A DNA stretch of 64,000 bases from Candidatus Helarchaeota archaeon (GTDB taxonomy: Archaea; Asgardarchaeota; Lokiarchaeia; Helarchaeales; RDOG01). Location of the stretch: positions 1 through 64,000 of the forward strand of contig JALGVI010000011.1 in NCBI GenBank assembly GCA_029838215.1, in the 5' to 3' direction. Position 1 is the stretch's first letter, and each line of letters begins with the position of its first letter. Position numbers and translations under genes: made by a program. Positions 18,830-23,285 of the stretch are shown here, piece after piece. The notes beneath the pieces are model-generated. The model had not been told where the DNA came from. It made no database searches and saw only the letters and a list, made by a program, of their open reading frames with translations.

Positions 18830-19228
18830 ATGAGCGAGTATGATGAACTTGCAACGAAACTAAGCGAAATTTCTGAAAAATTGGCAACGGTAGCAGATCT
18901 AATCACGACGTTGGTCAATGCAATAAAAACCATGGGACAACACTTGGGTGATAAAATGACTCAACTTACCGAGATGGTGAAAACCTATGGTATAAAAGCA
19001 ACAGAAACAGGTTCTGGCGATTTTGACCAAATACAAAGTGCTATCTCCAAAATATTTGAAAAAATTGATACATTAAACACGATTACTGGACAAAAATCCC
19101 TCCAAGATTCTGGTACTGCCTTGAATGAGTTATTGGACATGCTTGATACTGTTGCATTTGATCCTGAAGAAATTAAAATAAAAATAAATGAGATCACGAC
19201 ATTTATTGAAGAAATTAAGAAGAAATGA
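18830..19228 (+). CDS. Small all-helical coiled-coil protein (P1)
   Basis: 132 aa of heptad-patterned amphipathic helices with no TM segment. Alternative TTG start at 18818. Confidence 0.75.
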   Translation: MSEYDELATKLSEISEKLATVADLITTLVNAIKTMGQHLGDKMTQLTEMVKTYGIKATETGSGDFDQIQSAISKIFEKIDTLNTITGQKSLQDSGTALNELLDMLDTVAFDPEEIKIKINEITTFIEEIKKK

Positions 19229-19240
19229 AGGTGAAAACAC

Positions 19241-19888
19241 GTGGAAAAATCTGGTATCTCTTTTATCACGGCTGTCGCCAATGATATCTACGAAAAAGTC
19301 AATGGTGTAATAGAGTCATTCGAAAAAGTTGGAGAAATCCTACCCAACATAATGCAGGAAATAAATGATAATATGACAGCACTATCATCTTCAATTGGTC
19401 AGATGATCGAAGAAACCAATCAAAATCGTAATCTCACGAAAGATATGTTTTCTGAATTGACTGAAAAAGTCATAAATCAAATACAACAAATTCAAGACAA
19501 AAAAGAAGCTGAACTTGATGAAAAAGGATTAAAAGAAACCGTGCAAGTCTTGCAAAACGTTTCAAAAAACCTGAATGACAAGGTGTTTGATATTCAATAC
19601 GCTTTGATTATTGCAGGGATTCACACGATTGTTGACGTTCTAAAAGGATTAATTCAAGCACAACCCACACAACAAGTTCAGCCCGCTTCAGAAGAATCAA
19701 TTGTATTTTCCGATAAAGCTCCAATTCCTGTCAGCGCTTCAGAAACTGGAAAATTAGCTCCGAAAAAACCTGCAAAGCGAAAGAAAGGACGAAGAGCACC
19801 GGGTAAACCAACGCAAAAAACCGTGGGCTCTCATGAGGACGAACTTGAAAAAATGAGACGTAAAAAAAGGCTATTTGGTAACTACTAG
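19241..19888 (+). CDS. Coiled-coil protein with Pro/Lys-rich disordered tail ending RLFGNY (P2)
   Basis: Helical for the first ~140 aa, then a low-complexity tail. Aligns by eye with P4. Confidence 0.78.
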   Translation: MEKSGISFITAVANDIYEKVNGVIESFEKVGEILPNIMQEINDNMTALSSSIGQMIEETNQNRNLTKDMFSELTEKVINQIQQIQDKKEAELDEKGLKETVQVLQNVSKNLNDKVFDIQYALIIAGIHTIVDVLKGLIQAQPTQQVQPASEESIVFSDKAPIPVSASETGKLAPKKPAKRKKGRRAPGKPTQKTVGSHEDELEKMRRKKRLFGNY

Positions 19889-19899
19889 TGATTCTAAAT

Positions 19900-20418
19900 T
19901 CATCCGAATAAATCTGATGGCTTTAATAACGTATCATTTGTTTTATCCTTTTTTCCTGAAGTTTGGAGACTATCTAATTCTTCTTGTGGCGAGACGGAGC
20001 CTTGTGAAACGGGGACTCCTTCGCTTCCTATTGTAGGAATGGGTGCCGCAAGAGGCTCTTCTTTTGTAGTAACTCCTTGGACTGTTTTCGGAGATGAAGT
20101 CACTGCTGGGTGAGGGACTGGAGCAATGGCAACTTGGGTCATCAACTCGCGGACATCCTGTAAAACTCGATTGAGTTCCATTACCTGCATTTGTTTTTGT
20201 GTTTGCTCCATTAGAGTCGAGAACCGGGCCTCTAACTCATTCACTCTTGGGGAAACTGGACCTCCTCCCAAAGGTTTTTTTACGAGTTCTTTAATGGCAT
20301 TTTGATTTTCTGTAATCAATTCGGAGTTTTTCTTGATCTCATCAGCCATTGAGGTAACTTTTGTCAATATTTCTTTTAACACTCGAAGAATTTCTGATTC
20401 CATGACTTTATCTTCCAT
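19900..20418 (-). CDS. Coiled-coil protein with Pro/Ser/Thr tail ending LKPSDLFG (P3)
   Basis: Two helical segments, a disordered linker and a terminal motif shared with P6. Confidence 0.78.
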   Translation of the reverse strand: MEDKVMESEILRVLKEILTKVTSMADEIKKNSELITENQNAIKELVKKPLGGGPVSPRVNELEARFSTLMEQTQKQMQVMELNRVLQDVRELMTQVAIAPVPHPAVTSSPKTVQGVTTKEEPLAAPIPTIGSEGVPVSQGSVSPQEELDSLQTSGKKDKTNDTLLKPSDLFG

Positions 20419-20451
20419 GCCATCGACTCTCCATGATCATTTAACAAGTCA

Positions 20452-21987: not shown

Positions 21988-21995
21988 GGATGTTC

Positions 21996-22322
21996 TTATT
22001 CTCTCTTAATCTTATCTGCTACAGAGAGAATACGCTTCAATGCCGTTAATAAATCTAAGTACCAAAAATTCTCATTTACATTCTCGATGGAATTTAAAAG
22101 AAGCTTTGTATTTTCCCTGTAAGCCTTTAGACCACCTGCTTCCCCAAATCTCTGACCGAGCTGGGATACAGAATCATTGAGAGCCTCCATTGATTTGCTC
22201 AATTTGTTCAATGATTCCACGACGTTATTATTTACTTCATCCAGAGCATTCTGGATCTTGTCCATTCTACCAAAAACATCGTTTAATGCTTCAGTGATAA
22301 AAGGTAAGAGACTTCTACTCAT
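21996..22322 (-). CDS. Small coiled-coil protein (P4), paralog of P2
   Basis: SLLPFITEALNDVF...MEALNDSVSQL versus P2 SGISFITAVANDIY...MTALSSSIGQM. Confidence 0.78.
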   Translation of the reverse strand: MSRSLLPFITEALNDVFGRMDKIQNALDEVNNNVVESLNKLSKSMEALNDSVSQLGQRFGEAGGLKAYRENTKLLLNSIENVNENFWYLDLLTALKRILSVADKIKRE

Positions 22323-22334
22323 TTTATCATCCCA

Positions 22335-22676
22335 TTATTCCGTGTTTTTTTCACTCTGTATTACTTGAACCGTTTCTATGAGCTGATTTAATAATTCTGC
22401 TACTTTTTTCTCTTCGAATTCTGCTTCGAGCCGTTGGCTGATTTTTATAATGCTTTGTTTTGCGGTCTCAATTTCTTGCGTGTGAAAAATGATCTCAAAT
22501 GTTTTAATTAATCGATCAACGCGTCGATCAAATCCAACTAATAAATCATCCATGTTCTCGTTAAACTTTTCAAAAGTGTCTCGTAATAATTGAATTTGTT
22601 CATGTGTCTGATCTAATTTATTTGAAAGCTGCAAAAATAGGTTTTGAATGGCATGAAATTGAGGATCATCACTCAT
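22335..22676 (-). CDS. Small coiled-coil protein (P5)
   Basis: 113 aa heptad-patterned helices; tightly packed in an operon with P6 and P4. Confidence 0.75.
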   Translation of the reverse strand: MSDDPQFHAIQNLFLQLSNKLDQTHEQIQLLRDTFEKFNENMDDLLVGFDRRVDRLIKTFEIIFHTQEIETAKQSIIKISQRLEAEFEEKKVAELLNQLIETVQVIQSEKNTE

Positions 22677-22694
22677 GTTAATTACCTCGTGAAT

Positions 22695-23285
22695 TCAACT
22701 TCCGAAGAACGATGAAGGACGAAGGTTGTGATCCTCCCCATCTTCTTCAGCTTGCTGAGGTGGAACGGCTGGAGCCGTTGAAACTGGTGCGGTACCTTCG
22801 GTGCTACTAGCAGCAGGTGCCGAGGTTGTTTGGGTTGAGCTGGTTGAAGCTGGTGCGGTCTGTGAAGTAGAAGATGCAACGCGTTCAACCACCTTTTCAA
22901 CGACCCTTGGAGCCACAGGCATTGATAAATTCTCAATTCTCCTCACTAACCCCTGAATCGTCAAGATTTGAATGCTTTTTTGCAATTTGTTCAAGATATG
23001 ATCGATGGCGATTTCTATTTCATTTAAATCCTGCAATCCTAATGACTCGATCTCTTCGGTCAGAACCTGTTGCATCTCTGGAATGCTTCTTTGGCTCAAG
23101 ATTGCAAATTCACTGTCGAACTTCTTTTCTAAAGTATCAATTTTTTGCAAGATATTCTTAAAAGTAATGGTCTGGTCTTCAACTTTACGCTCTATTCTTT
23201 GTAACGCCTTTACTGCATCTTCGAGAAGACCTGTTAACATGTTTATGAGCACGGTGTCGCCTTGGGACAACTCAAACATCTCCAT
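22695..23285 (-). CDS. Coiled-coil protein with Ser/Thr/Ala/Pro tail ending LRPSSFFGS (P6)
   Basis: Helical for ~120 aa, then a low-complexity linker and the terminal motif shared with P3. Confidence 0.78.
   Translation of the reverse strand: MEMFELSQGDTVLINMLTGLLEDAVKALQRIERKVEDQTITFKNILQKIDTLEKKFDSEFAILSQRSIPEMQQVLTEEIESLGLQDLNEIEIAIDHILNKLQKSIQILTIQGLVRRIENLSMPVAPRVVEKVVERVASSTSQTAPASTSSTQTTSAPAASSTEGTAPVSTAPAVPPQQAEEDGEDHNLRPSSFFGS

Follow-up and report, generated by a model that had tools for sequence, protein, structure and literature searches.

The locus described here raises the question of whether a run of small helical proteins in a Candidatus Helarchaeota archaeon (assembly GCA_029838215.1, contig JALGVI010000011.1) forms an undescribed hetero-oligomeric complex, and what the basic unit of such a complex might be. 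The window, meaning the whole stretch of DNA analysed, comprises positions 1 to 64,000 of this contig. Six open reading frames (P1–P6) were originally predicted between positions 18,830 and 23,285, in two convergent units divided only by a radical SAM gene. All six are present in this arrangement, with P1 and P2 on the forward strand and P3 to P6 on the reverse strand, and intact orthologs of every one occur in the other Helarchaeales genomes examined (six others); the nearest genomes, named Helarchaeota, carry mcr genes.

P1 (18830..19228, +; 132 aa) consists of a long helix, a hinge and two short helices. P2 (19241..19888, +; 215 aa) has helices at residues 2–90 and 93–138, followed by a Pro-rich linker and a basic C-terminal helix conserved in the Helarchaeales order. 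P3 (19900..20418, −; 172 aa) comprises a helical core and a flexible linker, ending in the peptide L-L-K-P-S-D-L-F-G. The gene at 20452..21987 (−) encodes a B12-binding radical SAM protein (Pfam Radical_SAM, E 1e-18) and is followed by P4 (21996..22322, −; 108 aa), which lacks a tail, and P5 (22335..22676, −; 113 aa); both carry a 25-residue deletion. P6 (22695..23285, −; 196 aa) has a 22-residue insertion and a flexible linker with the terminal peptide L-R-P-S-S-F-F-G. Spacers between these seven genes measure 8–33 nt, the gap of 33 nt lying between P3 and the run from the radical SAM gene through P4-P5-P6. A TATA-like box preceded by a purine run (23354..23359, −) is located about 74 nt before P6 and another (18756..18762, +) about 74 nt before P1. 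They are possible promoters of P6-P5-P4-radical SAM and P1-P2, respectively, read from sequence only; both are weak evidence, since intergenic DNA here is AT-rich. The proteins show no clear transmembrane segment, as predicted: the best 19-residue hydropathy is 0.5–1.2, apart from one amphipathic P2 helix that reaches a borderline 1.7.

The six proteins had been regarded as diverged paralogs, P2 and P4 being alignable by eye. This alignment scores far over chance (z 9.1 against 500 shuffles), and an equally strong pair that had been overlooked, P3 and P6 (z 9.0), shares a common C-terminal peptide. A third overlooked pair, P1 and P5, is visible only with profiles; the remaining pairs reach z 0.4–3.8. 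With orthologs from six other genomes of the order, the proteins resolve into three families: A (P3, P6), B (P1, P5) and C (P2, P4). The cluster thus contains the same triple twice, as triple I (P1>P2><P3) and triple II (P6-P5-P4). Core-profile comparison with hhalign yields scores of 64 (97%) for B–C, 40 (93%) for A–B and 39 (92%) for A–C, against 22–31 for reversed profiles and 11–22 for neighbouring coiled-coil proteins. These values support a common ancestry of A, B and C beyond generic heptads, as the original prediction held. In deeper alignments B and C match over 137 almost gapless columns (98.4%). A shape search with the P2 model (family C) returned in its second row an archaeal Atlas cluster equal in length, size and taxa to the cluster containing a Promethearchaeum A protein, a supporting hint only, because long helices match easily. 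A hinge motif, [GS]L[QK], had been proposed to open the second helix of P1, P2, P4 and P6; profile alignments bear this out for P2, P4 and P6, and in P1 place the matching site three residues before SLQD.

A third triple is encoded elsewhere in the same genome (on another contig, C49:33330-34577) and in three relatives (L022, L075, L077). In phylogenetic trees, triple-I B proteins including P1 (support 97/97), triple-I C proteins including P2 (98/95), triple-III A and C, and triple-II C each group across the families of the order, with supports of 91–98 and no resolution of the deeper branches. This grouping places the triplication before the radiation of the order. Several genomes and metagenome contigs keep triples I and II adjacent; two genomes (G002 and G003) have them unlinked. 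No fused longer form of the proteins was found among the candidates scored, which is weak evidence. An A-like paralog that stands alone, differs in its C-terminal region and matches no Pfam family is encoded at L026:4153-4917, L027:7072-7758, L028:7594-8271 and L029:7466-8251, and at C97:1-549 in the genome under study; in three genomes it lies directly upstream of the mcrB-mcrG-mcrA genes.

Across 301 Asgard genomes, a sample that includes incomplete ones, family A was found in 128, B in 132 and C in 131, in nearly the same genome families. These are the Helarchaeales order, Lokiarchaeia f4/f5, Odinarchaeum (f7), Jordarchaeales (f12), Freyarchaeum (f22), f24 and f16, the last with mixed source labels including Hermodarchaeota; one Baldrarchaeia genome carries family A. 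Outside the Helarchaeales order, A, B and C are single-copy. The conserved clustering anticipated for related genomes is borne out across the order and in f7, f12, f16, f22 and f24 (Jord-, Odin- and Hermod-labelled lineages among them), these five families sharing the arrangement B>C><A. In Lokiarchaeales B>C are kept as a pair with A at a separate locus, and the near-identical distribution of the three holds even there. The module was not found in Heimdall-labelled f9 (0/27), f25 (19 genomes), f8 (Wukong) or f23 (Njord). Weak matches to family A in f11 (71 genomes, probably Thorarchaeia) and to B/C in f23 and f9 were dismissed as generic coiled coils. Triple I and the single-copy module of f12 and f4 often lie near selB-SepSecS, suggesting that this is the ancestral chromosomal site. 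In relatives, triple I has a zinc-ribbon coiled-coil gene and selB-SepSecS as flanking genes; in this genome they are found about 25 kb away (window 43527-44309 and 46149-48865).

The three-gene module is real, undescribed, widely conserved in Asgard archaea and duplicated at this locus. With one A, one B and one C in other Asgard lineages, the ancestral unit was not a complex of six subunits. The original prediction had offered either a single bundle of all six proteins or two trimers. Two clustered paralogous triples support the second option, in which each would assemble into a trimer. A hetero-hexamer could draw on the neighbouring position of triples I and II in several genomes of the order and on a possible co-transcription of P3 with P6-P5-P4 across the 33-nt gap. 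We consider it improbable, and it fails as the basic unit: lineages with a single copy carry just three genes, G002 and G003 have triples I and II at separate places, a third triple is present, and the rods predicted for the two triples differ in length by 25 residues.

How one triple might be built is suggested by the anatomy of its chains. The AlphaFold monomer of P2 shows an 89-residue helix, a break and a 46-residue helix (pLDDT 75), and that of P1 is all-helical at lower confidence (pLDDT 63); both have a modest pTM, under 0.4. Complex prediction of P1+P2+P3 gave a score of 0.01, which speaks neither for nor against binding. The hydrophobic period of the proteins is 3.56–3.60. Compared with single-copy orthologs, B and C of triple II are each exactly 25 residues shorter, and A is 22 residues longer. 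The two deletions, which count as one ancestral state and not as repeated events, coincide in the profile alignment, and such a paired loss at an equivalent place fits in-register packing of the partners. Twenty-five residues correspond to one 7+7+11 unit, in keeping with a hydrophobic period of 3.56–3.58.

We hypothesize that the chains of each triple assemble in parallel into a heteromeric coiled-coil rod, which carries a kinked head and is docked on a conserved partner by an arm of A; we consider this model moderately probable. B and C would pair in parallel and in register via their long N-terminal amphipathic helices, with A lying along part of their length. The rod would measure about 13 nm (89 residues at 0.15 nm), or about 9 nm in triple II, and would be capped by the kinked head formed from the last ~40 helical residues of every chain. 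Beyond the rod, A may continue as a disordered arm and insert its terminal H-L-x-K-P-S-D-F/L-F-G peptide into a groove of the partner, so that the rod tethers or recruits it. The triplication in the Helarchaeales ancestor would have given three rods differing in length and tails. The genes, their paralogy, co-occurrence and order, the paired indels and the conserved motif are observed; hetero-assembly, the parallel register and the docking role of A are the elements we infer. The model is weakened by the separate position of A in Lokiarchaeales, by the stand-alone A-like paralog and by the replacement of the terminal peptide in some lineages.

The main rival model is an obligate B–C heterodimer or 2:2 bundle, with A a relative standing apart or binding transiently. 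It can account for a B–C similarity far above A–B or A–C, for B>C being adjacent everywhere with A unlinked in Lokiarchaeales, for the opposite strand of A in the ancestral-type order and for a length of A that shifts opposite to B and C in triple II. However, A is distributed just as B and C are, was triplicated along with both and abuts C in five other families; we judge this model unlikely. Quite improbable is a second option in which the chains are exchangeable amphipathic helices coating a lipid surface, apolipoprotein- or phasin-like, without a protein rod. A period near 3.6, frequent weak matches to Apolipoprotein and ApoLp-III and the SPFH/NfeD neighbours in one family would suit such a coat; strict co-retention of three distinct families with matched lengths would not, most chains are net acidic, and the period at 3.67 is weak.

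The docking role assigned to A in the tripartite rod model draws on its C-terminus. P2, P3 and P6 run on into low-complexity Pro/Ser/Thr/Ala linkers, and family A ends in H-L-x-K/R-P-S-D-L/F-F-G/K; 116 of the 118 Loki homologs carry this ending, in which L, P, S and F never vary. Jord and Baldr proteins share this peptide; other ends replace it in Odin, f16 and triple III. A conserved tip on a variable linker indicates a predicted docking peptide. In the PIP box consensus of PCNA-binding proteins, an aliphatic residue precedes the aromatic pair by three positions; in family A that position is the invariant proline, and the peptide was rejected as a PIP box. The basic C-terminal helix of P2 (window 19790-19888), which the triple-I members of family C share across the order, may serve to bind membranes or to dock. 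A WH2 identity for this tail, short of a diverged motif, found no support: PF02205 matched nothing in the genome at an E threshold of 10, and no WH2 peptide emerged from a comparison of the P2-tail profile with the PDB.

Consistent with the earlier statement that no named family is recognizable, P1–P6 have no Pfam or NCBIfam match above cut-off, and PDB sequence searches with the cores returned generic coiled coils only. Foldseek gave no match at E 0.001, and the best Z values of a wide fold search (10.8 and 9.2) represent helical background. An ESM Atlas feature search with P2 yielded only unrelated rows, at 0.83. A search of 1.84 billion representatives retrieved family members, then long repetitive helical proteins. 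Source annotations of the members are all ‘hypothetical protein’ or stray automatic labels. Freyarchaeum (WED07_04250-04260) and Odinarchaeum (OdinLCB4_006265-006275) encode A, B and C, and among cultured archaea Promethearchaeum syntrophicum (DSAG12_01262) and Ca. Lokiarchaeum ossiferum (NEF87_003653) carry family A; the latter locus tag is absent from the accessible part of the L. ossiferum supplement, and no description of these genes emerged from literature searches by concept, motif or accession.

The WAVE core trimer (WAVE/Abi/Brk1) and arcadin-2 serve as comparison systems for a helical trimer. The module resembles the WAVE core in its Pro-rich linkers and terminal peptide, in its predicted helical trimer and in having adjacent actin-family genes in one lineage (f16); it differs in that WH2 finds no match in this genome, neither the cores nor the P2 tail match a PDB sequence, and actin genes are distant in other lineages. 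The closest geometric picture is the parallel, kinked heterotrimeric coiled coil of the Nsp1-Nup49-Nup57 channel (PDB 5cws), but the latter has FG repeats, which the module lacks, and the structural score is at background (Z 7.3 over 91 residues). The ESCRT-I core (Vps23, Vps28, Vps37, Mvb12; 10.1101/2024.02.06.579148) is also built of paralogous chains, with a three-long-helix stalk, a short helical head and flexible tails bearing docking motifs, to which we liken an assembly that is itself only predicted. No UEV family match was obtained for the module proteins, which are too short to fit a UEV domain. The steadiness-box, Mod(r) and Vps28 families are absent from the matches of the six proteins and from the 25 most frequent families of each alignment, and no ESCRT or ubiquitin genes were recognised in the module loci examined.

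The likeness to BLOC-1/BORC and DASH, initially offered as an analogy, remains one at the level of generic coiled coils. BLOC-1/BORC (PMC11513930) and DASH/Dam1 likewise consist of small all-helical paralogous subunits duplicated into sister complexes, but they have 8–10 families versus the three found here, and their matches to the module are sub-threshold and generic. Where that article on BLOC-1/BORC turns to Asgard archaea, it deals with HOPS-related domains and not with BLOC-1/BORC. P4 reaches 15 bits against a BLOC-1/BORC subunit model with a cut-off of 35, and no DASH model exceeds its cut-off (DASH_Dam1 E 0.13 for P4; DASH_Ask1 E 0.004 in 2 of 28 C members). True remote homology to any of these eukaryotic helical complexes (BLOC-1/BORC, DASH, ESCRT-I core, WAVE core, Nup62 trimer) would be hinted at by sub-threshold Pfam matches to BORCS6 in 6 of 43 B members (best E 1e-4) and to BLOC1_2 in 3–4 members (E 0.003–0.01), and by BORC and Nsp1 chains at Z ~7 in the fold search. 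Yet these matches rank under unrelated coiled coils, among them Baculo_PEP_C and NPV_P10, and under every curated cut-off; a Z of 7 is background for long helices, the BORC chain (Z 7.0, rmsd 5.0, 91 residues) ranking 48th amid generic helices. Moreover, the genomes searched under the labels Heimdall, Wukong and Njord yielded none of the three families. Such homology therefore appears improbable.

Genes surrounding the module vary by lineage, and none is universal. The radical SAM gene comes after P4 on the same strand in all seven genomes and in every locus of the order, which together with its nearest NCBIfam models (RiPP and protein methyltransferases, under cut-off) might suggest that triple II is a substrate or scaffold for post-translational methylation by this B12 enzyme. 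Such a role is very improbable: the enzyme's ortholog in G001 (L015:8646-10129) is frameshifted near codon 45–49 and seemingly broken, lineages outside the order have no such neighbour, their homologs lying mostly far from the module, and the core module would be left without explanation. The frameshift and the restricted position make the enzyme an order-specific add-on outside the core module. Homologs of the neighbours U2 and U3 are also mostly distant from the module outside the order.

In the tethering model, the partner of A might be part of a cell-shape or membrane-organising machinery, a tentative assignment at which the neighbours hint and the least certain element of the model. In f16, two actin-family genes lie directly upstream of B and C (L067:9625-11782, L068:9215-11370), and in lineages other than f16 actin genes are far from the module. 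The f16 pair is tandem and divergent, 40% identical mutually and 26–27% to canonical actin; one f16 genus has a single copy only. In family f3, SPFH and NfeD flank triple I (L150, L152, L153, L140, L023), with NfeD before B and SPFH before A on opposite sides and strands; these two genes normally form an operon pair. Encoded after triple III are a roadblock-like protein, a fusion of longin-like and Arf-GTPase parts, and a longin-like protein. Small-GTPase adjacency is weak evidence, because this genome has 69 Ras-like matches and the chance of a GTPase within 6 kb is about one in five. A canonical actin gene is located ~3.4 kb upstream of triple III in this genome. The block upstream of triple II (window 23432-29450), conserved in the order and likewise a hint at such machinery, encodes two coiled-coil proteins (351 and 553 aa), a helical protein of 803 aa and a GTPase resembling Arf/MglA; a homolog of the 803-aa protein lies ~7 kb from the triple in Freyarchaeum.

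The novelty of the module resides in the fact that no known family or system can be assigned to A, B and C; a coiled-coil-plus-peptide architecture is in itself common. Its bearing on eukaryote origins is lowered, though not abolished, by the failure to find it in the Heimdall-labelled genomes searched. We speculate, while considering it rather unlikely, that the module is an ancient Asgard-specific heterotrimeric tether by which membrane microdomains would be connected, via a new short linear motif, with actin-related proteins or with modules of small GTPases, and that its triplication in Helarchaeales is an archaeal instance of the paralogous complex expansion seen in eukaryotic trafficking complexes. 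Retention of A, B and C together in at least four Asgard classes, almost always in single copy, points to an undescribed core cellular machine, for whose partner the invariant terminal peptide of A, on small and soluble proteins, provides a ready bait.
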